Position numbers and translations under genes: made by a program. The notes beneath the pieces are model-generated. The model did no database searches. It had not been told where the DNA came from and saw nothing but the letters and a program-made list of their open reading frames with translations. This document shows positions 11,313 through 61,800 of a stretch of 64,000 bases of DNA, piece by piece. The stretch lies in assembly GCA_964581255.1 (NCBI GenBank), contig CAZOMT010000034.1:3865-67864 (forward strand), in the 5' to 3' direction. The DNA is from an uncultured Thermodesulfatator sp. GTDB lineage: Bacteria > Desulfobacterota > Dissulfuribacteria > Dissulfuribacterales > QOAL01. Numbering within the stretch: position 1 is the first letter of the stretch; every line of letters begins with the position of its first letter.

Positions 11313-11774
11313 ATGAAGATTACCACGAGAAGCAGATACGGCACCAGGATGATGGTAGAACTTGCTGCCAACTTTCACAAAGGTCCAGTTCAGGTGGGAG
11401 AAATAGCAAGGAAGGAGAACCTGTCTGTAAAATACCTGGAACAGCTTATCATTCCCCTTAAACGCACAGGCCTCATCAAGAGCATCAGAGGGGCCAGAGG
11501 TGGCCACTTGCTTGCAAGGGCACCAACTGACATCACGGTATGGGACATAGTTGCCGCACTTGAGGGAGAGGAAGGCGTCACGCCATGTGTTGCATATCCA
11601 GAATGGTGTGACAGGAGCAAGACCTGCCCTACCAGAGATGTCTGGAGCATGATCACAAAGGTCTTGAAGGAACGACTTTCGTCCATAACCCTTGCAGATC
11701 TGGCTCAAAAACAGCAGCAAAGGCTTGAGGACGAAAACTATATGGAGGATGAGATATGTATACGGAACAGCTGA
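11313..11774 (+). CDS. Rrf2-family (IscR-like) transcriptional regulator
   Basis: MKITTRSRYGTRMMVELA winged-helix N-terminus typical of Rrf2. Cys residues (CVAYPEWCDRSKTC) are compatible with a cluster-binding subtype. Confidence 0.85.
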   Translation: MKITTRSRYGTRMMVELAANFHKGPVQVGEIARKENLSVKYLEQLIIPLKRTGLIKSIRGARGGHLLARAPTDITVWDIVAALEGEEGVTPCVAYPEWCDRSKTCPTRDVWSMITKVLKERLSSITLADLAQKQQQRLEDENYMEDEICIRNS

Positions 11775-12238
11775 TGCAACACTTTGCAAATCCACACAAT
11801 GTTGGCGTCATAGAGGACGCTGACGGTATAGGACAAGTGGAAAATTCTGTATATGGCGATATGGTGACCTTCTATATAAAAGTCAAAAATGACACCATCG
11901 AGGATGTCAAGTGTCAAGCCACGGGATGCATAGCTGCAATAGCAGTATCGAGCCAGGTGACAGAAATGGTCAAAGGCAAGAGCCTGTTGGAGGCCAAAGC
12001 CCTAACCCAAAAGGCAGTGGCCGAAGCGCTTGGTGGGCTCCCAAAGGACATGGTCCACTGTTTCAATCTTGGAGCAGAGGCACTGCAAAAGGCAATAAGA
12101 AATTATGAGACCTCCGCTTTCTTGACCACCTCTCCAGTGAAAAAAACCGACGTACTATACAAAAGATGTGGAAGCTGTTGGACAAAGAATTCGGTCACAT
12201 TGAATTACTGCATGTGCTGCGGTGTAAGGCTCAAATAA
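11756..12238 (+). CDS. Atypical IscU/NifU-N-like scaffold protein with C-terminal zinc-ribbon tail
   Basis: HFANPHNVG, ATGCIAAIAVSS and VHCFNLGAEAL match IscU blocks. The first ligand Cys is replaced (NSVYGD instead of CGD). The tail reads CGSCWT...YCMCCG. The gene overlaps the Rrf2 gene by 19 nt. Confidence 0.65.
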   Translation: MYTEQLMQHFANPHNVGVIEDADGIGQVENSVYGDMVTFYIKVKNDTIEDVKCQATGCIAAIAVSSQVTEMVKGKSLLEAKALTQKAVAEALGGLPKDMVHCFNLGAEALQKAIRNYETSAFLTTSPVKKTDVLYKRCGSCWTKNSVTLNYCMCCGVRLK

Positions 12239-12490: not shown

Positions 12491-14188
12491 ATGACAACAA
12501 GCAAAAGCACATGCCTCGGCAATAGAAAAGACAGATCCAGGCCAGATATTTCCTGCAGGAGCAAGGCGAAGACAAGACATAGCCTAAGGAACTTCATCAT
12601 TGCTGCATTGCTAATAAATATCTTTGCCATAATGTCCATAGGTGGAATATGCACCATGCTCGTTAAGGAAATGGCTCTGGATATCGCCAAGCTGCGCATG
12701 GAGAGCAAGTCGGTATCGAGGGTGCACAACCTGAACAACAGGACCCAGGAGGCCATCTTTCTAGCGGAAAATGCACTGGTTAAACACGACAAGGAACCTC
12801 TTGGTTATGCCATATACGTAGTCAAGGATCTGCTGGATAAGGTTTCCCTGTACAAAGAAAAAAGGATAGCCGACGACAGTTTTGGCCTTAGTGCCAATGT
12901 CCTTTACCAAAAGATTGAAGATAATCTCCAGGAAATAGACAAGAGACTAAAGGCAGCCTATGAGGAATTTTCTGGCAATAACGTCCTGGACAGGCAAATG
13001 CTAAAGGAGTTGGAAACATATGGATACAATGTCCAAAATCAGGTTCAGGCCATAAATGCCATAAGTTTCAGAACCATTGAAAAGCAGGTCGAGGATTCCA
13101 ACAACAAGATGTACTACATCTTGTTCATGTATCTTACCTCCTGTTTCTTGGGCATTGTGGCTTCATGCACTGGCTATATTTTGCTGATGCGGAATGTGGT
13201 ACGTCCTGTCATCACTCTGGCCTATGCCACAGAAAGAGTCGCCGAAGGAGATCTGTCGGCAAGGGTTTACGCAACCACCAGGACCGAGATAGGCACCCTC
13301 TATGAAGCCTTCAATTCCATGACTGCAAGACTCCAGGAACACGAAAAAAGGAGGGAGGAATTCAGTAGAGAGCTCGAAAGAAAGGTGAAAGAACGCACCG
13401 CTGAACTCAAGGCATCCAAGGACTCTCTCAAAAAGGCCCAGAAGGAATTGATCCGCATGGAAAAAATAGCCACTTTGGGCCAGATAGCCACCAGTGTCAA
13501 CCACGAAATAAAAACTCCACTAAACGTGCTTTACATGAACCTGCAACTGTTGAACAAAAAGATAAAAAAGTGCAGTCCTGGCCTACAAGACTGTTCAAAA
13601 GACATGCTGAATCTTACAAACCTCATAAATAAAGAGGTCGTCAGGATCAATGAAATTGTCGAAGAATTCGTAAATTATGCGCGCTTTCCTTTGCCAGACA
13701 TAAAAGGGAACGACTTGAACAAGATCGTGCAGGATATAGCTGAGATGATCGAACAAAAGGCCACGGCTGCCAATGTTCAGGTTGAGACACAGCTGGATGA
13801 CTCCCTTGGGATCATCCTTCTTGACGATAAAAAGATCACCCAGGCACTCCTGAATCTGTGCATGAACGCCTTGCAGGCCATGCCTTCAGGAGGAAAACTG
13901 CTCATAGAAACTAACCATATAGGATCTGCAGCAATAGTAAAGGTCTCAGACACTGGCACAGGTATTTCAGCCAAGGATATGGACCGGATATTTCAGCCAT
14001 TTTTCACTAAAAAGGCCCATGGGACAGGCTTTGGACTGGCCATCGTACAGAGGATAGTGGAAGACCACGGCTGGACCATCAGTTGCAAAAGCAATGTAGG
14101 CACAGGCTCTTCATTTATTATTCAAATCCCTTTCAAAAAGGCTAAAGACCAGGAGGACCATGACCAAACCCACAGTTTTGATAGTTGA
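12491..14188 (+). CDS. Sensor histidine kinase (2 TM, extracytoplasmic region, HAMP, HisKA, HATPase)
   Basis: H-box SVNHEIKTPLN and a G-box region (DTGTGI...GTGFGLAIV). Two hydrophobic segments flank a loop of about 170 aa. The exact start is uncertain. Confidence 0.85.
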   Translation: MTTSKSTCLGNRKDRSRPDISCRSKAKTRHSLRNFIIAALLINIFAIMSIGGICTMLVKEMALDIAKLRMESKSVSRVHNLNNRTQEAIFLAENALVKHDKEPLGYAIYVVKDLLDKVSLYKEKRIADDSFGLSANVLYQKIEDNLQEIDKRLKAAYEEFSGNNVLDRQMLKELETYGYNVQNQVQAINAISFRTIEKQVEDSNNKMYYILFMYLTSCFLGIVASCTGYILLMRNVVRPVITLAYATERVAEGDLSARVYATTRTEIGTLYEAFNSMTARLQEHEKRREEFSRELERKVKERTAELKASKDSLKKAQKELIRMEKIATLGQIATSVNHEIKTPLNVLYMNLQLLNKKIKKCSPGLQDCSKDMLNLTNLINKEVVRINEIVEEFVNYARFPLPDIKGNDLNKIVQDIAEMIEQKATAANVQVETQLDDSLGIILLDDKKITQALLNLCMNALQAMPSGGKLLIETNHIGSAAIVKVSDTGTGISAKDMDRIFQPFFTKKAHGTGFGLAIVQRIVEDHGWTISCKSNVGTGSSFIIQIPFKKAKDQEDHDQTHSFDS

Positions 14189-15509
14189 TGATGACAAAAT
14201 GACCAGAAATACCCTGTCACTTGCACTGGAAGAAGACTACTCCACTTGCACGGCAAACGATGGGATCGAGGCCTTGAAACTTCTCAAGCAAAAGGCTTTT
14301 GATATTGTACTGTCTGATCTGGACATGCCAGGAATAGACGGGTTGAAGCTCCTGGAAAAGATCGGACAGATGGAAAACAAGGTGCCCTTGATAGTGATTA
14401 CAGGACAAGGGACCATTGAAAGTGCTGTTCAGGCTATGAAATCAGGGGCCTATGACTTTGTTACCAAACCCGTGAACCTTGACCGGCTCGGCCTACTCAT
14501 GGAAAAGGCCCTCGAGAACAAACGCCTCAAGGAAGAAAATCTCTTGCTCAAAAAGAAGATCAAGGAGAGCTTTCCAGAACTCAAATTCATAGGTCGTTCT
14601 GAAGCCATAAGAAAGTGTGAGGATCTTGCCATGCAAGTGGCCTCTACCAAGGCCACGGTCTTGATCGAAGGCGAATCTGGCACAGGCAAGGAACTTATTA
14701 CAAACATAATCCACTACAACAGCCCAGTGGCCCATGGGCCCTTTATCAAGATCAATTGTTCAGCCTTTTCTGAAAGTCTGCTCGAATCTGAACTTTTTGG
14801 CCATGAGAAAGGTGCCTTTACAGGGGCCTTCAAAACCAAGAGAGGCCGTTTTGAATTGGCGGACCAGGGTACATTATTCCTGGATGAAGTAGGAGAAATG
14901 CCCCTGTCCACCCAGGTGAAACTGTTGAGGTTTTTGCAAGAACGCACCTTTGAAAGGGTGGGGGGCACCAAGACCCACAAAGTGGATGTCCGGCTCATCT
15001 CTGCCACAAACAGAGATCTGGCAAAGATGGTCAAGGAAGGCAAATTCCGGGAAGATCTCTACTACAGGCTGCGTGTGGTCAGAATAGTGGTGCCTCCCCT
15101 CAGAGATCGTAAAGAGGACATTGACGATCTCGTCCACAATTTCATCAAGAGATTCTCGGGCCTTCATGGCAAGCCTATTTCCGGGATATCGAGGGATGCC
15201 ATGGAGTTGATGCGCTCATACAGGTGGCCTGGAAATGTCAGAGAGCTTATGAATTGTATAGAAAGCGCCGTAGTCATGGCTAAAACCGATTTCATCGATG
15301 TGGATGATATCCCAGAATACCTGTCGGACAACTCCAGTCAGGCTGAGACAGGCGGCAGCGGCCTGGGTCTCATCCAGGAACTTGAGCGAAAGGCAATAAT
15401 AGAAACACTCGAAAAGACCAAGGGAGACAAGGTCAAGGCTTCGCGGATTCTGGGTATTGGTTTAAGAACCCTCTATAGAAAAATAGAGAAGTGGGAAATA
15501 GACACTTAA
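14160..15509 (+). CDS. Sigma-54-dependent response regulator (NtrC/AtoC class)
   Basis: Receiver domain (VLIVDDD...DLDMPG), AAA+ domain (GESGTGKE, GAFTGA) and a C-terminal Fis-type HTH. It overlaps the kinase gene. Confidence 0.92.
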   Translation: MTKPTVLIVDDDKMTRNTLSLALEEDYSTCTANDGIEALKLLKQKAFDIVLSDLDMPGIDGLKLLEKIGQMENKVPLIVITGQGTIESAVQAMKSGAYDFVTKPVNLDRLGLLMEKALENKRLKEENLLLKKKIKESFPELKFIGRSEAIRKCEDLAMQVASTKATVLIEGESGTGKELITNIIHYNSPVAHGPFIKINCSAFSESLLESELFGHEKGAFTGAFKTKRGRFELADQGTLFLDEVGEMPLSTQVKLLRFLQERTFERVGGTKTHKVDVRLISATNRDLAKMVKEGKFREDLYYRLRVVRIVVPPLRDRKEDIDDLVHNFIKRFSGLHGKPISGISRDAMELMRSYRWPGNVRELMNCIESAVVMAKTDFIDVDDIPEYLSDNSSQAETGGSGLGLIQELERKAIIETLEKTKGDKVKASRILGIGLRTLYRKIEKWEIDT

Positions 15510-15523
15510 TGATGCCCGTTCTC

Positions 15524-15559
15524 TTGCCAAAATGACAATCAGCCACGCCATTATGGCAA
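15524..15559. promoter_or_regulatory. Imperfect inverted repeat, candidate upstream activator sequence for the sigma-54 regulator
   Basis: TTGCCAAAATGAC-N10-GCCATTATGGCAA, with 11 of 13 positions symmetric. It is centred about 75 bp upstream of the -24 element. Confidence 0.4.
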
Positions 15560-15612
15560 TTATTCGCCCCCATTCACACCCTATCTGCTTGTTTTTATTA
15601 ACAAAGGCAGCT

Positions 15613-15628
15613 TGGCACGTAAATAGCA
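15613..15628 (+). promoter_or_regulatory. Sigma-54 (-24/-12) promoter
   Basis: TGGCACGTAAATAGCA against consensus TGGCACG-N4-TTGCW. The GG and GC are at the exact canonical spacing, with one mismatch in the -12 element. It lies 57 nt upstream of the ATG at 15685 and directly downstream of a sigma-54 activator gene. Confidence 0.6.
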
Positions 15629-15684
15629 TTATATAAATACAACAAGCAAAAAGTTGCTAACAAAAAAGAAAAGGGGGCATAATT

Positions 15685-15912
15685 ATGAGACATACAATTA
15701 CAGACGCAAAGGTTAAAACGAGAACACAGGAACGAGTGTCTGATGCAACACGGGCAGAAGATACAATTGTATCAGGAATAATGACTATTGGTGGCACGGT
15801 TGCTTTCCTGATTGGACTTTGGGCTGCTGCCTGTGTCGTTGGAGGCCTCATAGCTGCCGGCGGACCAATACAATTCGTGAAGAGCTGGTTTTTGGCAGTT
15901 TCAGGCGGTTAA
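15685..15912 (+). CDS. Small (75-aa) hypothetical membrane protein
   Basis: ATG preceded by AAGGGGG about 8 nt upstream. The N-terminal third is charged, followed by a long hydrophobic stretch (IMTIGGTVAFLIGLWAAACVVGGLIAAGG). No family was recognised. Confidence 0.45.
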   Translation: MRHTITDAKVKTRTQERVSDATRAEDTIVSGIMTIGGTVAFLIGLWAAACVVGGLIAAGGPIQFVKSWFLAVSGG

Positions 15913-16078
15913 GGGAAAATTAAAAAGGCGATGGCACCAAGTTGGCGTCATCGCCTGGATCAAGGTACACCGGACGAGGCACCAACTGTTATTCTGTTGA
16001 AGACATAGAGGAACTATAATGTGGCCGTTATAAGATATCTTATTTAATCTCAAGCAGGAAAGTGACATAGATCATAAC

Positions 16079-17965: not shown

Positions 17966-18015
17966 ACAACAAATACTGAGGCGACCTTCATGATTTGGTC
18001 CGTAAATCCCCATTT

Positions 18016-19506
18016 ATGGCTCTGGCAATGAACAGTATCTTTTTCCCAAAGATTTTTCAAAAGGGGATCAACTGGGTCTCAAGGAGCAAGATATCAGTCA
18101 CTGGCAGCATAATAGTGGCCATTTTATTGCCAGTTCTTAGCATATCTTTCACGTTTGACTATTTCGGATTTATCCAAAACCCCTATTTCGGATTTCTTCT
18201 TTATGTATTTATGGCCCCACTGTTTGTCTTGGGCCTCATACTCATATTCGTGGGTACGGTATTGAGGCCTGGCAGGGAGGATCTGGGCATATACACCTTT
18301 GAATATTTCAAGGAACAGCTTTCCAGGCCAGGCCGGTACACAAGGGTCCGCAGGCTCATCTATTTCACCATCGGGATAACCCTGTTTTGCTGCTTTCTGG
18401 TGGGGATGGTGTCCTATGGAACCTTTCGCTACACGGCTTCCAACAGTTTCTGTGGCCAGTTCTGCCATCAGGTTATGGCACCGCAATACACCGCATATAA
18501 AAATTCTCCTCATTCCAAGGTGGCATGTGTTGAATGCCATTTTGGAAAAGACGCTACGTGGGCAGAACGGTCGAAGTTTACAGGCATCAAACAGCTCTTT
18601 GCAGTTACCACAAATTCTTACAGCAGACCTATTCTTTCTCCTATCAAGGCCCTGCGTCCTGGTCGGAAGACCTGCGAAGAATGCCATCGTCCAGAAAAAT
18701 TTAAGGGCCTCATGCTCTACATTAAGGACGGATTCCTGCCTGACAAGAACAATACCCGGGTCCAGACAATCATGATTATGAAGGTGGGATCAGGGGATGT
18801 GGCAGGCAGCCCAGCACACGGCATCCATTGGCATGTTTCAGAAAATCAGCAGGTCTTCTACAGGGCAGCAGACAGGGGCAGGGATATAATTACAGAGGTC
18901 AGGGTTGTGGAAAAAGGGAAAAAGGATGTGGTCTTCGAACGAATCCAAGGCCTTGATAGTCAAGGGTTCCCGCAGACGGGCCTAGTGGATGGCAGTCTTT
19001 TGAGAAAGATGGATTGCGTGGATTGCCACAATAGGCCTACCCATATCTTTCTCCAGCCAGACGAGGCTTTGGACAGGAAAATAGCTGAGGATAGCATTCC
19101 CCGTTACCTGCCCTTTATAAAAACTCAGGCATTAAAGGCCATAACCGGGGATTTCCCCTCGGTCAAGGTTGCCCGCGTCCAGATATCAAGACAGCTTCAG
19201 GAGTGGTACCGCAAGAATTATCCAGACCTCATACAAAAGAATCCGGGATTATTGGAAAGGGCCATTCAGGGAACCATTGAGGCCTATGAGGAAAACGTTT
19301 TCCCAGAAATGAAGGTCACCTGGGGCACATATAAAAACTTTCTGGGTCATTCTGATGGCTCCGGATGTTTTCGATGCCATGGAAAGCTCAGAGAGAGGAA
19401 AACCAAAAAGGTCATAAGCAGCGACTGCAATCTCTGCCACGTTGTTTTGGCAAAGGACCAAGTAAGGCCTGATATCCTGAAGATCTTAAAGGGAGTCCTT
19501 CTTTGA
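18016..19506 (+). CDS. Membrane-anchored NapC/NirT-like multihaem cytochrome c (paralogue 1)
   Basis: Three N-terminal hydrophobic helices. Five CXXCH motifs (CVECH, CEECH, CVDCH, CFRCH, CNLCH) plus one CX3CH (CGQFCH) inside a NapC-like block FCGQFCHQVMAPQYTAYKNSPH. The start is set at the first ATG, since the track uses an upstream TTG. Confidence 0.8.
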   Translation: MALAMNSIFFPKIFQKGINWVSRSKISVTGSIIVAILLPVLSISFTFDYFGFIQNPYFGFLLYVFMAPLFVLGLILIFVGTVLRPGREDLGIYTFEYFKEQLSRPGRYTRVRRLIYFTIGITLFCCFLVGMVSYGTFRYTASNSFCGQFCHQVMAPQYTAYKNSPHSKVACVECHFGKDATWAERSKFTGIKQLFAVTTNSYSRPILSPIKALRPGRKTCEECHRPEKFKGLMLYIKDGFLPDKNNTRVQTIMIMKVGSGDVAGSPAHGIHWHVSENQQVFYRAADRGRDIITEVRVVEKGKKDVVFERIQGLDSQGFPQTGLVDGSLLRKMDCVDCHNRPTHIFLQPDEALDRKIAEDSIPRYLPFIKTQALKAITGDFPSVKVARVQISRQLQEWYRKNYPDLIQKNPGLLERAIQGTIEAYEENVFPEMKVTWGTYKNFLGHSDGSGCFRCHGKLRERKTKKVISSDCNLCHVVLAKDQVRPDILKILKGVLL

Positions 19507-19700: not shown

Positions 19701-21134
19701 ATGGCATTTGAAAAAAACGATCAAAGTGAAAACAGATCTCCACACAGACACAGAAGCGCCTGGGGCCATATCATAAGAGGGCTCTGGCGTACCCCTTTGG
19801 GCATAATGAGTGTGGTGCTCACCACCATAAGTGCCACCCTCATGGTCCTTGGCATAATCGCAGACCTGCTGGGCTTATTCCGCAATCCTTATGTGGGGGT
19901 ATGGATCTATATGATCTTTCCCATATGTATGGTGGCTGGCCTTTTATTAATTCCCATCACTGCATACCTGCGCCGTCGCCAATGGCATAAATCCGGTGTG
20001 GAAAAAAAGCCCCTCAAGCTCAATCTCAGCAATCCCAAGCATCGCTGGTTCCTAGTGGGTTTTATCGTATTGACTGTTGTCAATGTAGCGATATTCGGAT
20101 TTGTAGGCTATGAAGGTTACCATTTCACAGACTCTCCATATTTTTGTGGCATGGTCTGCCACCAGGTCATGGCGCCTGAATACACAGCCTATCAACGGTC
20201 TCCCCATTCAAGGGTGTCATGTGTGGAGTGTCACATAGGCCCTGGTGCTGAATGGTTCGTCAAGGCAAAGATATCGGGTCTGCGGCAGGTATATGCCGTT
20301 GTAACCAACAGTTATGCCAGGCCCATCCCTACACCTGTCGAGGCATTGCGTCCAGCCAGGGATACATGTGAGACATGCCATTGGCCAGAGAAATTCTACG
20401 GGAAAAAGGTCAAAAAATTTTATACAACCGAGGGCAATGAGACAGAGCCTCAACAAACAGAGATATCCCTGCACATTGGAGGGCGCAATCCAGTAACCAA
20501 ACAATTTGAAGGCATACACTGGCATGTCAGCAAAGACGTTCAGGTCGAGTACCTGGCAGTGGATGAAAAGCGCACCAAGATTGCAAAGGTGAGAATAAAA
20601 ATGGCAGACGGCACTTCTGACGAATTCATCAAATCGGATATGGAACCGGAAAATGGCTATAAACCAAAATGGCGGGTTATGGATTGCATTGACTGTCATA
20701 ACCGTCCCACTCATATCTATTCCATGCCAGAAGAAGTAATAAACTTTGGCCTCCTCAGTAAGGACATCGATCCTGCAATTCCAGGCATAAGACAAGATAG
20801 CCTGGCTGTCCTCACAAAGATGTATGATAGCAGAAAGCAGGCAAGAGAAAGGATGATTGCGGATCTCATGGCCCTTCAGAAACAGCGTAACATCCAAGCG
20901 GCCTCTGCTCACAAACCCGGGATAGAACGGGCAGGACAGTATCTTCTCAAGGCATACCTGGAGAATGTGTGGCCTGCCAACAAGGTGTTTTGGGGCACTT
21001 ACAAAAGCCATCTGGGACATCAGTGGAGTGATCAAGGCTTTGGGTGCTGGAGATGCCACGATGAAGAGCACATAAATTCGAGAGGGGAAGCAATTTCACA
21101 AGATTGTAGCCTGTGCCACGACGAACCAGAATGA
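19701..21134 (+). CDS. Membrane-anchored NapC/NirT-like multihaem cytochrome c (paralogue 2)
   Basis: Same architecture as paralogue 1: CGMVCH (CX3CH), CVECH, CETCH, CIDCH, CWRCH, CSLCH, with N-terminal TM helices. The two proteins are colinear. Confidence 0.8.
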   Translation: MAFEKNDQSENRSPHRHRSAWGHIIRGLWRTPLGIMSVVLTTISATLMVLGIIADLLGLFRNPYVGVWIYMIFPICMVAGLLLIPITAYLRRRQWHKSGVEKKPLKLNLSNPKHRWFLVGFIVLTVVNVAIFGFVGYEGYHFTDSPYFCGMVCHQVMAPEYTAYQRSPHSRVSCVECHIGPGAEWFVKAKISGLRQVYAVVTNSYARPIPTPVEALRPARDTCETCHWPEKFYGKKVKKFYTTEGNETEPQQTEISLHIGGRNPVTKQFEGIHWHVSKDVQVEYLAVDEKRTKIAKVRIKMADGTSDEFIKSDMEPENGYKPKWRVMDCIDCHNRPTHIYSMPEEVINFGLLSKDIDPAIPGIRQDSLAVLTKMYDSRKQARERMIADLMALQKQRNIQAASAHKPGIERAGQYLLKAYLENVWPANKVFWGTYKSHLGHQWSDQGFGCWRCHDEEHINSRGEAISQDCSLCHDEPE

Positions 21135-56571: not shown

Positions 56572-57591
56572 TTAGAAAATTTCATCCAGAGAAAAGGGTA
56601 TAGTAAAGACTGCATCCACATAATGCCTGTCTGACAGCAGCCCTTCTTCAGCTGGCGTCAGGTTGAATTCATAGGCATATCCCAAGGTGAACCAGGGTGT
56701 TATAGGAAATCTGGCACCAATGGCCATGGTTGCGAAGTTCCTGTGCACACTGCTGTTTTCTCCACCAAGGTTTATAATATCACAACCACTGAAGGTGGTG
56801 ATGCCGGCCACTAGATCGTCTTCCTGAGGGCTTCCGAGGAATCCGGCTACTGCATGTTCAAGCCCCTTGTCTTGAATGGCCTGCCTGACGTAACCAGTGC
56901 GGTTTCCTGCCTTGATGGTGTAGAAATGGTTGATCTCAACCAGGGGATGGAAATAAGGAAGGACCTCGTAACTAAGGTGCCAGGAATCGAAAAGGGTATA
57001 ATCCTCTTCAGGCGCATCCAGCGGGATGGTCAATCCTACGGCTCCAGCCAACTCTGCCTGGCCTACCCCCTTGAGAAATAATATGGATGGTGCGATGTTG
57101 CCGTCTCCATTTCCCTGGTATACCTGGTCACTTCCGTTTGCAAATTCGTAGATAAGGCGGCCAGAAACAACCGTCTTTGTATTGGGAGAGTAATAAAATG
57201 AATATTGGATTCCTGCAGCCAGATCTACCCAGCCGTCTGTATCCTTGAGGGTATTATCCGGCCGCATATTTATATAGCCACTTTTGACAGCGAGGAAGGA
57301 TATGCGCTCATTGACGGCAACACCAGCCTGGAGGGCAAAACCGCGGACGTGGCCACCCAAAGGCAGATCCTTCATGCCCAGAGGAGCATCCACCACGGTA
57401 TCAACATGCGATGGCAGGTGTTGATACATGAAAACGGGCCTTACAAAGGTCTTATTCAATGCCCCACCCACGGTATAAACCGGGTTGCTCATGGGCATAA
57501 TGAATTGATCAAACCCATCTGCCCATGAAAGGCCACTAAACAGAAGAAACAGTGACAGCGTCAGCAATGTCATGATAGCATTACATTTCAT
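56572..57591 (-). CDS. Outer-membrane beta-barrel protein (uncharacterised), first gene of the hydrogenase operon
   Basis: Signal peptide (LLFSGLSWA/DG), alternating amphipathic strands rich in G/Y/aromatic residues, and a C-terminal ...DEIF (terminal Phe). The start is set at the ATG 9 nt after AGGAGGA. Confidence 0.6.
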   Translation of the reverse strand: MKCNAIMTLLTLSLFLLFSGLSWADGFDQFIMPMSNPVYTVGGALNKTFVRPVFMYQHLPSHVDTVVDAPLGMKDLPLGGHVRGFALQAGVAVNERISFLAVKSGYINMRPDNTLKDTDGWVDLAAGIQYSFYYSPNTKTVVSGRLIYEFANGSDQVYQGNGDGNIAPSILFLKGVGQAELAGAVGLTIPLDAPEEDYTLFDSWHLSYEVLPYFHPLVEINHFYTIKAGNRTGYVRQAIQDKGLEHAVAGFLGSPQEDDLVAGITTFSGCDIINLGGENSSVHRNFATMAIGARFPITPWFTLGYAYEFNLTPAEEGLLSDRHYVDAVFTIPFSLDEIF

Positions 57592-57836
57592 AAAAGTCAA
57601 TCCTCCTTCTCCCGGTTTCTAAAGCTTTTCACTAATCCCTGCCACTATTTCAACAAATCTTGCCCAAATACGAAAACTACAAATAACTAATTGCAATCAA
57701 AGGAAAATCTTATTTGTTTTTTTGTAATGCAATCAACGCCCAAAGGCGGTATAATTAATCATATAAATAATTACAATCGATAGCGATGCAAAATGTGTTC
57801 CAATATTATGACATTTAAAGACAAGAAAACGAGGGC

Positions 57837-58883
57837 TTGTCAGTGTCGGTAGACCTCATAGGCAAAAGCGCTGTCATACTGGAGATCAAGGACCTCATAT
57901 CCAAGGTTGCCCCTCTGGATCTCCAGGTCCTCGTAACCGGAGAAACAGGCACAGGCAAAGACCTCGTGGCCAGAATAATCCACGAAAGAAGCCCTAGAAA
58001 AAACGGCCCTTTTATCCCAATCAATTGTGGAGCCATTCCCAACACCCTTGTCGAATCTTGCCTTTTCGGCCACGAAAAAGGGGCCTTTACTGGCGCAACA
58101 GGTAGATCCAGGGGCTTTTTCGAAGAGGCCCACCAAGGCACCCTATTTCTGGATGAAATATCTGAGGGCTCGCCGGTGCTGCAGACGGCTCTCCTCAGAG
58201 TGCTCCAGGAAGAATGCTTCTTCAGGATAGGCTCAACCAGGGAACTGCAGGTCAATGTCAGGATAATCGCCGCCACAAACAAGGACCTTAAACTCGCAGT
58301 GAATGTGGGCACCTTCCGCGAAGACCTTTTCTTCAGATTGAGCGTATTTGAGATAAAACTGCCTCCGCTAAGGGACAGGGGTGACGACATCTTCCTCCTT
58401 GCATATCATTACCTGAACCGGGCAAATCAAAAATATGGAAAAAATGTCAATCGGCTTTCCAACGAGGTCGTCAGGGTATTCAAATCCTATCACTGGCCAG
58501 GCAACGTCAGGGAACTTTTTCATGTGATTGAAAGGGGTGTAGTTGTGGAAAACTCAGATGAACTCTCCATGGCGTCCATGCCGCGATACATGAAAGACAA
58601 GGGAGAATTTCAGCAAGAAAACACCAGCCAGGCCATCACAGGCGCCACTGAACAAACCAGGCCCAACAGCCTGGAAGAAGGCCTCTTTTCTCTTCCAATA
58701 AGCGAGGCAAGGAAGCGCTTTGAAAAAAGATACCTCAAAAGGCTTCTTTCAAAAACCGCTGGCAACATGTCCCTTGCTGCAGAAATTGCCGGCATAAGAA
58801 GACAGAATCTCTACAGAAAGATGCAACAGCTCAAACTCGATCCATCTTCATTCAGGACAAGAAGCAATCAGGGCAGAAAATGA
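57837..58883 (+). CDS. Sigma-54 activator lacking any N-terminal sensory domain (AAA+ and HTH only)
   Basis: Starts directly with LIGKS...VLVTGETGTGK and carries GAFTGA and a Fis-type HTH (MSLAAEIAGIRRQNLYRKM). An in-frame TAA at 57816 precludes a longer N-terminus. The start is TTG or GTG. Confidence 0.85.
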   Translation: MSVSVDLIGKSAVILEIKDLISKVAPLDLQVLVTGETGTGKDLVARIIHERSPRKNGPFIPINCGAIPNTLVESCLFGHEKGAFTGATGRSRGFFEEAHQGTLFLDEISEGSPVLQTALLRVLQEECFFRIGSTRELQVNVRIIAATNKDLKLAVNVGTFREDLFFRLSVFEIKLPPLRDRGDDIFLLAYHYLNRANQKYGKNVNRLSNEVVRVFKSYHWPGNVRELFHVIERGVVVENSDELSMASMPRYMKDKGEFQQENTSQAITGATEQTRPNSLEEGLFSLPISEARKRFEKRYLKRLLSKTAGNMSLAAEIAGIRRQNLYRKMQQLKLDPSSFRTRSNQGRK

Positions 58884-61800
58884 CTGAAAAGCACCCGGGC
58901 AAAAGATCCAAGATCCCCTCAGCGGCAGTCATAGGCGCGGGAGTCTCTGGCATAACTGCTGCCCTCGACCTGGCAGAACTTGGATTGCACGTGTACCTGA
59001 TAGAAGAAGGAGATGTCATCGGAGGGCTCATGTCCCGATTGAGCAAGACCTTTCCCACAGGAGATTGTCCAACCTGAATACTCTCGCCCATGATGGCCCA
59101 GTTGGGCATGAATAAAAACATTGAAATCCTCACGAGATCTTCTGTTCTGGACGTCCAACAGGACAATCGGGATTTCCTTTTGCGGGTCAGGTCAAATCCC
59201 CGCTTCGTCATCCCTGAAAAATGCATTGGATGCGGTCTTTGCGAGGATGTATGTCCTGAAAACATTACAAGCTTGTCACACAAATATGACAAATTAAAAA
59301 AGGCGATCTATCTTCCATCTCCTACAGCAATTCCAAGGGGCTATGTGATCGATGCCAAAAGCTGCGCCTTTTTCACGAACAGGGCATGTGGAAAATGCGC
59401 CAAGATCTGTCCAAGGCACGCCATCGACCTGAACCAGGCGCCCCAGGAGTTCGAGGTAAGAGTTGCAGCCGTAATCCTGTCTCCAGGCGCCACCTTATTT
59501 GATCCAAGGGCCTTGCCTTCCTTTGGTTATAACAATCTCAAAAATGTGGTCACAACCCTTGAAATGGAGTCCCTTTTGAGCCCTGCGACTCCAGATCTCG
59601 AAGGCCTCAAGAGGCTTGCTTCCAATAGTAGAACGCCAGCCAAGATAGCATGGATACAGTGTGTGGGCTCCAGACAGACCAACGTGGTAGATAGGCCCTT
59701 TTGTTCCAGTATTTGCTGCATGGCCTCGATCAAACAGGCATTGTCCCTACGGCAGATGCTTGTCCCAGAACCAGAGGTCTCTATCTTTTACATCGACGTT
59801 AGAGCGCATCAAAAGGGTGCGGAGCGCTATTTAAGGTTGGCCGTGAAAGCTGGAGTCAGGTTGATACCCAGCAGGATACACTTTCTTGAAGAGGTCCAGG
59901 GCGAAAAGATAAGAATAACCGCATGGACAGACTCGGGGAAACGACTTCGAGAAATTTACGATATGGTGGTGTTGTCATGCGGCCTCGGCTCTCCAGAAGA
60001 GCTTGGCAGGCTATCAACCCTGTTTGGGGTGGAAACGAGCCGTTACGGTTTCAGCAAGGGCCAAGGCCTGATCACAACCATGACCAGTAAACCTGGCATT
60101 TACGCCAGCGGCACCTATACGGATCCAAAATCCATCCAGGGGGCAGTGATAGAAGGTTCAGCCGCAGCTGCCTTTCTATGCAGCGACCTAAAGATCAGCT
60201 CCTTCAAGGACCCTGGTGCCATGGAACTAGACTTGCCAAATGGTCCTGCTCCTTCATTGGAACCTCCAAGAATAGGCGTATTCATCTGTGAATGTGGTAA
60301 AAACATAGGCCAAGTGGTAGATGTAAATAGCCTGGTTCAGAGGGCAAAAAAGATAAATGGCGTGGTGGTGGCCAAACACCTCAAATTTGCATGTGCCCCT
60401 GACTCTCTAGACCTGCTATCTGCAACCATTATACAAAAGGGCCTCAACAGGATTGTTATCGGCGCTTGCAGTCCAAAATCCCATGAGCCCCTGTTCAAAA
60501 AGGCCCTCCGGGACGCAGGCCTTAATGACAACCTCCTGGAAATCGCAAATATCAGGGAGCAGGCGGCCTGGGTGCACGCTGCTGATCCAGACGGGGCAAC
60601 CAAACGGGCCTTGGACCAAATCGTGATGTCGATAGCAAAAGCTGGGCTGTTGAAGGCATTGGAATTGCCTCAATATCCTGTCACCAAGCATGCCTTGGTC
60701 ATTGGAGGTGGAATTTCAGGGCTCACTGCTGCAAAACTTCTCTCTGATAGGGGAATCAAGGTGAGTTTGCTTGAAAAGAAAGAAATACTGGGAGGCAATG
60801 GAAGATCACTGCTGCGGTCATGGAAGGGAGTTGAAATCCGTAAGTACGTAGACGGTCTCATAGGGGAAGTAACATCCAAAAGAAATGTTGAAGTCTTTCT
60901 CAGGGCCCAGCTTTTGGATGTTCAGGGTGAGACAGGAAATCTCACAAGCTTTGTGCGATATGGCAGCCAGGGACAGGTAAAGGCCATAAATCACGGCGCT
61001 GTAATTGTCGCATCTGGAGCACAGGAGGCAAAACCGCTGCAATTTCACTATGGTGATCATCCCAGAATCCTCACCCATCAGGAGCTTGACCAAAAAATTA
61101 TAAAAAGTGGCTTCCAAATCTTCCAGCAGGCCGACTCCGTAGTGTTTATCCAGTGCGTGGGTTCATGCAGCCAGGAGCGGCCCTATTGCAGCAGGGTCTG
61201 CTGCACCCATTCAGTAAACAGGGCCATTTTGCTCAAGAAAAAAAGGCCTGAACTTTCTATTTATATTTTGTACCGGCACATGAGGACCTATGGCCAACGG
61301 GAAGATCTCTATACCGAGGCCCGAAGCTTAGGCATTAAGACAATCAGGTTCACAGAAGATACCCCTCCAGAGGTAGAGCTCTTGACTGCCATGGATGAGG
61401 ACAAAAGGCCGGAGACCATCATCAGTGTGACGATATTTGACTCCCTTACAGGCAGGGTTATAAAGATTAAGCCAGATTATCTCGTCCTTGCCTCTGCAAT
61501 AGAGCCAGATATCAATGGCAATCAACGACTCTCTAAGATACTAAAGGTGCCCTTGGATCAGGATGGTTTTTTTCAGGAGGCACACAACAAACTTCGCCCA
61601 GTGGAACTGAGGCGCGATGGTTTTTTTGTGGCAGGCCTTGCCCATTATCCCAAAGAGGTTGAAGAATCCATTAGCCAGGCAGCTGCCGCAGCAAGCAAGG
61701 CCGCTGTCTTTCTATCCAAAGAAAGGGTGACCCCAGACAGAATCACTGCAGAAGTTCTTATATCCAGATGCGATGGATGTGCCTTGTGCCTGGATGTTTG

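Follow-up and report, generated by a model that had tools for sequence, protein, structure and literature searches.

What does a complete NtrC-type regulatory cassette control when the gene at its promoter encodes a small membrane protein of no recognised family? This question is raised by a 64,000-nucleotide stretch of DNA from an uncultured Thermodesulfatator sp. (contig CAZOMT010000034.1), which we call the window. An initial annotation of its sequence had recognised a sensor kinase and a response regulator, followed by an inverted repeat, a sigma-54 promoter and an open reading frame (ORF) for a 75-residue membrane protein, and had taken the last of these to be the immediate product of the system. 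Comparative genomics backs this regulatory reading, and we regard it as very probable that the circuit works as described and that the small gene is real. The features of the cassette are listed here, and related loci are given L numbers throughout.

12491..14188, plus strand: sensor histidine kinase of 565 amino acids (Pfam HAMP, HisKA and HATPase_c; hydropathy)
14160..15509, plus strand: NtrC-class response regulator and sigma-54 activator of 449 amino acids (Pfam; GAFTGA in the translation)
15525..15537, no strand assigned: predicted upstream activator site 1, the 13-bp palindrome TGCCAAAATGACA, with no mismatch to TGYCA-N3-TGRCA
15546..15558, no strand assigned: predicted upstream activator site 2, CGCCATTATGGCA, with one mismatch to the same consensus
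15613..15628, plus strand: predicted sigma-54 -24/-12 element TGGCACGTAAATAGCA, with GG at 15614-15 and GC at 15626-27, the best-scoring site in the window
15672..15677, plus strand: ribosome-binding site AGGGGG, 7 nucleotides before the ATG and conserved in L001, L006, L007 and L008
15685..15912, plus strand: gene for a 75-residue protein with a single transmembrane (TM) segment (homologues, substitution rates, family model and structure model)

Is the small ORF a gene at all? The comparative sequence evidence strongly suggests that it is, and makes a chance arrangement very unlikely. A plausible ribosome-binding site and one hydrophobic stretch had been claimed for it, and both were found. 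Conservation in relatives, with a bias towards synonymous substitutions, had been proposed as a check: homologues are numerous, the ratio of non-synonymous to synonymous substitution rates (dN/dS) is 0.15-0.29 for the window gene and four orthologues, and L007 and L008 differ by 14 synonymous and 2 non-synonymous changes. An antisense ORF of 64 residues at 15657-15851 was rejected, its frame being broken by stops in L007 and L008.

A word-index search with the single protein matched only the protein itself and one orthologue of 68% identity. This result would have suggested an orphan, and was overturned by a profile search of 1.8 billion cluster representatives that found 122 proteins at E < 1e-3. 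Nearly all of these are 65-80 residues long, with a profile match that ends at the final residue or the one before it. Species-representative genomes and metagenome contigs were also scanned and yielded 80 true loci; L021 was discarded as a family locus because its match was a subtilase. Counted with the family hidden Markov model (HMM), there are 162 members in 92 arrays at 89 loci, comprising 62 pairs, 4 triplets and 26 singles, with some arrays cut by contig ends. The window protein matches this HMM at 2e-27 and belongs to the new family. It is not an isolated oddity: the family is sizeable and its genes usually stand in tandem pairs.

All named sources fall in the order Desulfobulbales, namely Desulfomarina profundi, Desulfolithobacter dissulfuricans, Desulfofustis, Desulfoprunum and metagenome-assembled genomes (MAGs) of Desulfobulbaceae. 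The first two are cultured species whose complete genomes carry family genes (DGMP_05460 and GF1_19780, respectively). Source annotations read "hypothetical protein" wherever a name is given, except for one metagenome entry labelled FliO. One MAG, JAHJIY01, holds at least nine small-gene copies in four loci (L010, L011, L012 and L015); one locus adjoins a molybdopterin oxidoreductase operon and only one adjoins a kinase and regulator.

The small protein had been described as being of unknown family, and this description stands. The window protein has no match in Pfam or NCBIfam at E <= 0.01, and no family in these libraries could be identified for 61 members, which gave scattered weak matches only. 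Podoplanin (5 of the 61 members, 3.4e-6) was judged spurious, being a eukaryotic mucin family set against bacterial TM proteins, the holin-like Pfam matches (3 members, best E = 0.0095) were judged spurious or noise and a CcoM-like match (E = 0.045) was placed at noise level, all three judgements being made without inspection of the alignments. For the 75-residue product itself, there is no significant profile match among the described families, including PspG, PspB, PspC, CcoM and the holins. A search of Rfam gave no meaningful match, and in the literature we found no paper combining Desulfobulbaceae, sigma-54, FtsH and NirT. The circuit is of a known type. Within the reach of these libraries and of the literature search, neither the target family nor its conserved cluster has been described.

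The evidence for sigma-54 control comes from the window and from the family as a whole. In the window, the near-consensus promoter of the initial annotation is found where it was claimed to be, 54 bp beyond the repeat and 56 nucleotides before the ATG. The element keeps GG-N10-GC, faces the small gene, has one mismatch to TGGCAC-N5-TTGCW and is conserved at orthologues and paralogues. When sites are scored with extra weight on the GG and GC doublets, it is the sole one on either strand of the window to reach 18.5. A loose consensus search allowing up to two mismatches gave 57 matches in the window against 45.6 expected, which is not significant, and therefore the weight of the promoter rests on its position and conservation. 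Transcription would start near 15638-15640.

In the family-wide test an element was called at a score of at least 17.5. Such an element lies 35-113 nucleotides before the start codon of 77 of the 81 first genes of arrays (95%), compared with 2% of random 115-nucleotide windows from the same loci. The second and third genes of arrays have one in 8.6% of cases, and the interval between the small genes and ftsH has one in 2 of 40, which is the background level. The predicted targets of sigma-54 are therefore the small genes, and ftsH is not a target in its own right. The link between family and sigma-54 appears to be near-obligate.

The activator site needs a correction. A repeat is present at 15524-15559, as had been reported, although the label "imperfect inverted repeat" does not hold: there are two tandem 13-bp palindromes, 21 bp apart from centre to centre, which is two helical turns. 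The dual palindrome, with a spacing that is invariably 21 bp, is found upstream of 13 arrays (L001, L006, L008, L009, L011, L012, L017, L019, L022 and L083-86). When 685 kb of related loci were searched for palindrome pairs at this spacing, 13 of the 14 found sit 148-197 nucleotides upstream of a small-gene homologue. The arrays concerned belong to the clade whose adjacent regulator, where present, is 66-84% identical to that of the window. Orthologous loci keep both the dual site and the -24/-12 element even where the identity of the regulators has fallen to 66-70%. The predicted sites thus have the properties looked for in an enhancer, that is, at least two in-phase dyads, some 70-150 bp upstream of the promoter, that co-vary with the regulator.

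The nearest relative, L001, has a small protein 68% identical to that of the window and full synteny. Both palindromes and the -24/-12 element are conserved there, while the DNA between these motifs has diverged, as has the upstream region through an insertion of about 230 bp (L001 7960-8190, also present in L006) between the regulator stop and the activator sites. A 77-residue ORF called inside the insertion is probably spurious, because the insertion is absent from the window. The dual palindrome also occurs at arrays with no activator gene in the available sequence, which covers at least 2 kb upstream in each case (L011, L017, L019 and L083); the contigs of L084 and L086 are too short to judge. 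L011 and L012 belong to one MAG in which the kinase and regulator are found only at L012, a pattern compatible with a single regulator for several small-gene arrays. Together with the well-defined promoter, the dual operator could be used as a regulon marker and as a reporter for the signal of the system.

The two-component pair itself is as had been supposed, a two-TM sensor kinase whose ORF is overlapped, by 29 nucleotides, by that of an NtrC-class regulator. A hydropathy scan places the TM segments of the kinase at residues 35-53 and 210-228, and the predicted periplasmic region of about 150 residues between them matched no family. The true start codon could lie as many as about 25 codons away, since the alignment of relatives begins only at residue 27; orthologues occur in L001, L006, L008, L009 and L012. 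The nearest NCBIfam models are AtoS and ZraS, with scores under the cut-off. The regulator has the receiver domain (Response_reg, 2.3e-29), the AAA+ domain with GAFTGA (Sigma54_activat, 1.5e-72, with AAA_lid_14) and the Fis-type helix-turn-helix (HTH_8, 1.8e-12) of an NtrC-class enhancer-binding protein. Its best NCBIfam similarities are to AtoC (492.7 against a cut-off of 714), the PEP-CTERM-box regulator, NtrC and ZraR (388 against 760). All of these fall under the equivalog cut-offs, and therefore the regulator is not an orthologue of any named system. Judged by their sequences, the kinase and the regulator are members of the NtrC/AtoC/ZraR class and orthologues of none of its named representatives.

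Some further observations concern other parts of the window. A second sigma-54 activator gene lies at about 57400-58900 on the plus strand, with an AAA+ core 48% identical to that of the regulator. A -24/-12-like match on the minus strand (57787-57802), just upstream of the region that aligns to this AAA+ core, is probably a chance occurrence within the N-terminal coding part of the second activator. Directly upstream of the kinase (11313-12238) there are genes for an Rrf2-family regulator and a NifU-N-like scaffold, which overlap by 19 nucleotides. This pair is kept in L001 and L006, and not in more distant loci.

How would such a circuit work? Phosphorylation, dimer binding to in-phase dyads, oligomerisation and ATP-driven opening are established behaviour of NtrC-class activators and sigma-54. 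In the window, the kinase would phosphorylate the activator, two dimers of which would then bind the palindromes at 15525-15558, on the same face of the helix and about 60-80 bp upstream of the -24 element. The dimers would assemble into an active AAA+ oligomer that remodels the sigma-54 holoenzyme at TGGCAC-N5-TAGCA, and ATP-driven opening of the closed complex would allow transcription from near 15639.

The primary product would be a 75-residue bitopic inner-membrane protein. It is predicted to have a basic, threonine-rich and disordered cytoplasmic tail of about 28 residues, followed by a Gly/Ala-rich TM helix, a Gly-Gly-Pro turn and an amphipathic helix of 14 residues, with the conserved C-terminus in the periplasm. 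An AlphaFold2 model built with the family alignment gives a helix at residues 5-58, a turn and a helix at 61-73, with a mean pLDDT (predicted local distance difference test) of 72.6 and low confidence in the N-terminal tail. According to this model the window protein would be a helix, a GGP turn and a helix, and a Foldseek search of the Protein Data Bank with it found no match. The tail is placed in the cytoplasm by the positive-inside rule, because it is basic, and the short amphipathic helix would then lie at the periplasmic face.

The family shares these features. Among 149 distinct members the median length is 72 residues, and the N-terminal tail of 28 residues is rich in Thr, Lys and Arg, with a net positive charge in 83%. 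The single Gly/Ala-rich TM helix carries G-x-W-A-x-A-C, a G-P turn is followed by 13-14 residues to the C-terminus in 117 of 124 members, and the C-terminus ends in a conserved x-G-x, of the type T/S-G-M. The positions conserved in at least 90% of the family are Gly, Trp, Pro and Ala only.

Downstream of the small gene the window contains the following features.

15926..15956, plus strand: stable RNA hairpin without a U tract (-21.3 kcal/mol, z = -5.4), starting 14 nucleotides after the stop codon
16079..17965, plus strand: FtsH-family membrane AAA+ zinc protease, complete (TIGR01241, 732.7 against a cut-off of 600)
17995..19506, plus strand: ImcH-like inner-membrane cytochrome 1 (3 TM segments, one CX3CH and five CX2CH motifs)
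19701..21134, plus strand: ImcH-like inner-membrane cytochrome 2 (37% identical to cytochrome 1; 3 TM segments, one CX3CH and five CX2CH motifs)

Hairpins of other sequence stand at the same place in L001, L007 and L008, all without a U tract, and a terminator scan found no canonical intrinsic terminator after the window small gene. The window hairpin may be a partial terminator or a stabiliser. Across the family, 43 of 80 arrays have a GC-rich hairpin with a U run no more than 130 nucleotides from their last small gene, compared with 13% of random windows, and several further arrays have a hairpin with a 4-U tail. Because terminator-like structures follow the arrays, the small genes would form a short and probably abundant transcription unit. 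We propose that the hairpin after the stop codon, which looks like a true terminator in most relatives, keeps the level of the small protein above that of the downstream FtsH and cytochromes. The latter genes would be reached only by read-through or from a promoter of their own that is not sigma-54-dependent.

A second sigma-54 promoter, for ftsH, was considered at 15932 (TGGCACCAAGTTGGCG) and rejected, as it is not conserved in L001. Between the hairpin and ftsH (16007-16033), a strong Shine-Dalgarno sequence, AGAGGA, precedes a mini-ORF of four codons (MWPL-stop), about 45 nucleotides before the ftsH start. It has counterparts at the same place in L001 and L006 (MWF*), L007 (MCL*) and L008 (MWS*), is absent from the canonical clusters described below and overlaps a TATAAT/TGTAAT box. 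This region may be an upstream ORF with a regulatory role, or it may supply ftsH with a sigma-70 -10 element.

The FtsH protein has two TM segments, Walker A and B motifs, the second region of homology, the sequences GPPGTGKT, DEID and HEAGH and the Pfam domains FtsH_ext, AAA, AAA_lid_3 and Peptidase_M41, as expected of the family. In both cytochromes the CX3CH motif follows immediately after the membrane domain and there is similarity to NapC/NirT; by sequence, NrfH is their only relative of solved structure. ImcH homologues are described as having three TM helices, a CX3CH beside the membrane domain and CX2CH motifs, of which non-Geobacter homologues have 5-9 (PMC6295460). The two window proteins have this arrangement and are called ImcH-like on architecture alone. 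Most relatives outside the clade of the window have a single cytochrome copy, compared with the tandem paralogues seen here.

The commonest gene order in the family begins with a soluble PAS kinase, a REC-PAS-AAA+-HTH activator and small genes A (70 residues) and B (72 residues). It continues with ftsH, a 2-TM protein of about 300 residues, one ImcH-like cytochrome and convergent pst/phoU genes. L001, L006, L007 and L008 share the variant seen in the window, in which the kinase is of the 2-TM HAMP type and a single small gene is accompanied by two cytochromes. L009 resembles it, except that it has two small genes and a divergent ftsH. In other variants (L018, L020, L024, L088, L089 and L093) NrfC/NrfD modules replace the cytochrome, and L012 consists of the two-component system and three small genes, nothing more. 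Of 56 arrays, 42 have the activator as their immediate upstream neighbour on the same strand and 41 have ftsH as the first recognised gene downstream; a cytochrome or NrfD gene is nearby at 29 of 39 loci. These fractions overstate the linkage, because the seed of the metagenome scan was a 9-member sub-family from the canonical ftsH cluster.

Other genes recur in these neighbourhoods. Directly after the last cytochrome gene of the window, phoU and pstB/A/C/S are convergent (21283 to about 25900, minus strand), as they are in L023, L026-L029 and others; pstB or phoU occupies that position in 16 of the 39 loci with at least 5 kb of downstream sequence, across genera. This placement may reflect ancestral synteny or a functional link to phosphate. 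The 2-TM protein between ftsH and the cytochrome (L023 11420-12313, L026 11322-12245, L024 9266-10288) has a C-terminus like a kinase DHp helix that lacks the phospho-accepting His (NETINRLNGIMNYAQLL, compared with HEVNNPINGIINFAQIL in the adjacent soluble kinase), and possibly makes up a split sensor together with that kinase. Homology between it and the periplasmic domain of the window kinase was sought and rejected (BLASTP E = 3), so the two are related by architectural analogy only. Upstream of canonical clusters, a membrane MASE10-SpoIIE (PP2C) phosphatase is encoded on the minus strand (L023 3991-5469, L026 991-2394, L027 1-1167, L029 9-1412). The phosphatase gene is adjoined by one for a second PAS-rich protein in L026, L027 and L029; in L027 this second protein is a sigma-54 activator.

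What, then, does the small protein do? Small membrane proteins are under-annotated and are often regulators of larger machines. We propose that this one, like most bacterial small membrane proteins, would act by binding a larger membrane protein, because it has no conserved ionisable residues and is encoded in tandem diverged pairs. The likeliest partner would be the adjacent FtsH, of which the small protein could be a substrate, adaptor or inhibitor via its cytoplasmic tail, and the partnership would tune the assembly or turnover of the ImcH-like quinol-oxidising cytochromes. To engage a membrane substrate, FtsH requires about 20 residues of free cytoplasmic tail. It is favoured here because it is the most frequent immediate neighbour and because the small protein has such a tail. 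The initial annotation had suggested a possible modulator of, or adaptor for, FtsH and the cytochromes, which is a plausible and reasonable hypothesis in view of the conserved neighbourhood. That FtsH is the specific partner we put forward tentatively, as a possibility that may well prove wrong; the explanation taken as a whole, with the circuit, its product and an FtsH-linked role, is in our judgement probably the best one, although by no great measure of confidence.

Several observations weigh against this explanation, the seeding bias given above among them. Some arrays (L010, L011, L012, L015 and L019) have no ftsH within 6 kb. The MAG with nine copies has no linked ftsH, which argues against an exclusive FtsH role, and there are orphan arrays with neither ftsH nor cytochrome genes nearby, e.g. 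L011, L012 and L019. None of the positions conserved in at least 90% of the family is charged, His or Cys, and therefore no particular chemistry is indicated. The rpoN gene, which encodes sigma-54, was sought in the window and not found. Finally, the hairpin in the clade of the window lacks a U tract.

The alternative that survives best takes the small protein for an accessory subunit or assembly factor of quinol-oxidising modules, ImcH-like or NrfCD-type, in a role like that of CydX or of the small subunits of cytochrome oxidase, with FtsH merely co-located for quality control. In L009 the two small genes directly precede both cytochrome genes, with ftsH divergent; in L024 a pair is followed by the 2-TM protein and NrfD; in L018 and L020 the small gene comes after an NrfC/NrfD pair; and in L015 it abuts the Mo-oxidoreductase operon. 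The frequency of cytochrome or NrfD neighbours fits as well, as does the CcoM-like match, even at its noise level. However, more than half of the arrays have a terminator between the small genes and the operon that follows, and the partner would not keep one fold, being a NapC/NirT cytochrome in some clusters and the unrelated NrfD in others. The orphan arrays have no respiratory genes nearby, and no haem- or quinone-binding residues are conserved. We consider an accessory subunit doubtful.

Could the small protein instead feed back on its own regulators? A connector like MgrB, SafA or ZraP would damp or amplify signalling via the TM region of the sensor, and FtsH would clear it and so reset the system. 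In the window its target would be the 2-TM kinase; in other clusters it would be the sensor-like protein with 2 TM segments that has a gene of its own. It is true that no partner of the small genes is more constant than the activator with its DNA sites, that these genes are the only clear sigma-54 targets and that the module at L012 has a kinase, a regulator and small genes alone. That said, two or three diverged tandem copies, and up to nine per genome, would be unusual for a feedback inhibitor, and a strong ribosome-binding site and terminator suggest an abundant product. The kinase of canonical clusters is also soluble, with 364-370 residues and no hydrophobic stretch by eye, as distinct from a hydropathy scan. 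We hold a feedback connector to be rather unlikely.

Less likely again is a stand-alone effector of envelope stress, in a PspG-like role, that inserts into the membrane and stabilises it or oligomerises there, and has no specific partner. The predicted sigma-54 dependence, the multi-copy arrays and the orphan arrays are all compatible with such an effector, as are the small-xxx-small packing motifs of the TM helix, the interfacial amphipathic helix and the weak holin-like matches. Against it, the small genes are linked with great regularity to ftsH, the sensor-like protein and the cytochrome, which speaks for a specific context, and there is no similarity to the PspG, PspB or PspC models. A fourth possibility is that the motifs resembling a promoter and a repeat arose by chance and that the 75-codon ORF goes unexpressed. 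The lack of enrichment of the loose sigma-54 consensus is compatible with it, but many genomes keep the motifs, their spacing and the ORF, and this conservation, together with the purifying selection and the 122 homologous clusters, effectively refutes it.

How do the circuit and the proposed FtsH-linked role compare with known systems? The cassette resembles the NtrC/AtoC/ZraR systems, such as ZraSR-zraP and AtoSC, in its membrane kinase and REC-AAA+(GAFTGA)-HTH_8 activator, in the tandem dyad sites about 80-110 bp upstream of a GG-N10-GC promoter and in a target gene beside the regulator genes. Unlike ZraSR and AtoSC, it has a sensor domain that belongs to no family and scores well under the equivalog cut-offs, and its target is a predicted bitopic membrane protein rather than a periplasmic chaperone (ZraP) or a catabolic operon.

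The phage-shock system (PspF with pspABCDE/pspG) also has small inner-membrane proteins whose induction depends on sigma-54. In Yersinia, FtsH degrades PspC unless PspB is present, and this is therefore a precedent for sigma-54-controlled small membrane proteins that are coupled to FtsH. The differences are that there is no sequence similarity, that the predicted topology of the window protein is the reverse of that of PspB and that the window activator, unlike PspF, has a receiver domain and a cognate kinase. The small protein is comparable to MgtR, SpoVM and YccA (with FtsH), CydX, MgrB and AcrZ in its size, in having one TM helix and in its predicted induction by the system that it would serve, and their mode of action is the one proposed here. 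It has no homology to any of them, and a partnership here would be deduced from the neighbourhood alone. To our knowledge, none of these proteins is sigma-54-dependent and none is encoded in tandem paralogous arrays.

In Geobacter, quinol oxidases of the ImcH type have a central role in extracellular electron transfer. The window cytochromes are like ImcH (GSU3259) in having about 480-500 residues, three N-terminal TM helices, an atypical CX3CH after the TM domain and similarity to NapC/NirT/NrfH; they have five CX2CH motifs rather than six, and the likeness is one of architecture alone. The closest published analogue of the whole arrangement, by gene layout only, is BccR-cbcBA of Geobacter sulfurreducens. 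There, a sigma-54 activator adjoins an operon with a -24/-12 promoter before GSU0597 and GSU3489, and the operon has two small hypothetical genes followed by an inner-membrane quinol-oxidising cytochrome (bioRxiv 10.1101/2021.04.15.440034). The cytochromes of the window are ImcH-like and not bc-type CbcBA, and the window has an ftsH where the cbcBA system has none. Among the family matches with source names there is no Geobacter protein.

In summary, the regulatory logic of this locus is ordinary and its target is unusual, an unannotated family that is, judging by the presence of promoters, almost obligately sigma-54-dependent. The regulatory interpretation is supported and has been sharpened in three ways, by the dual operator, by the near-obligate link to sigma-54 and by the transcription unit that the small genes appear to have to themselves. 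The family marks a conserved cluster in the Desulfobulbales, with a kinase, an activator, one or more small proteins, FtsH, a sensor-like protein and an ImcH-like cytochrome. Its function is directly testable, as two cultured species with complete genomes carry it. A bolder version of the FtsH proposal, for which we would claim only a slim likelihood, is that the small proteins, typically an A and B pair, are induced by sigma-54 as dedicated adaptors or inhibitors for a specialised paralogue of FtsH, with which they would form a proteolytic switch determining whether the ImcH-like or NrfD-type quinol oxidase stays in the membrane. If true, this switch would be a previously unknown, order-wide rewiring of the respiratory chain in the Desulfobulbales, including the cable bacteria and sulfur disproportionators.

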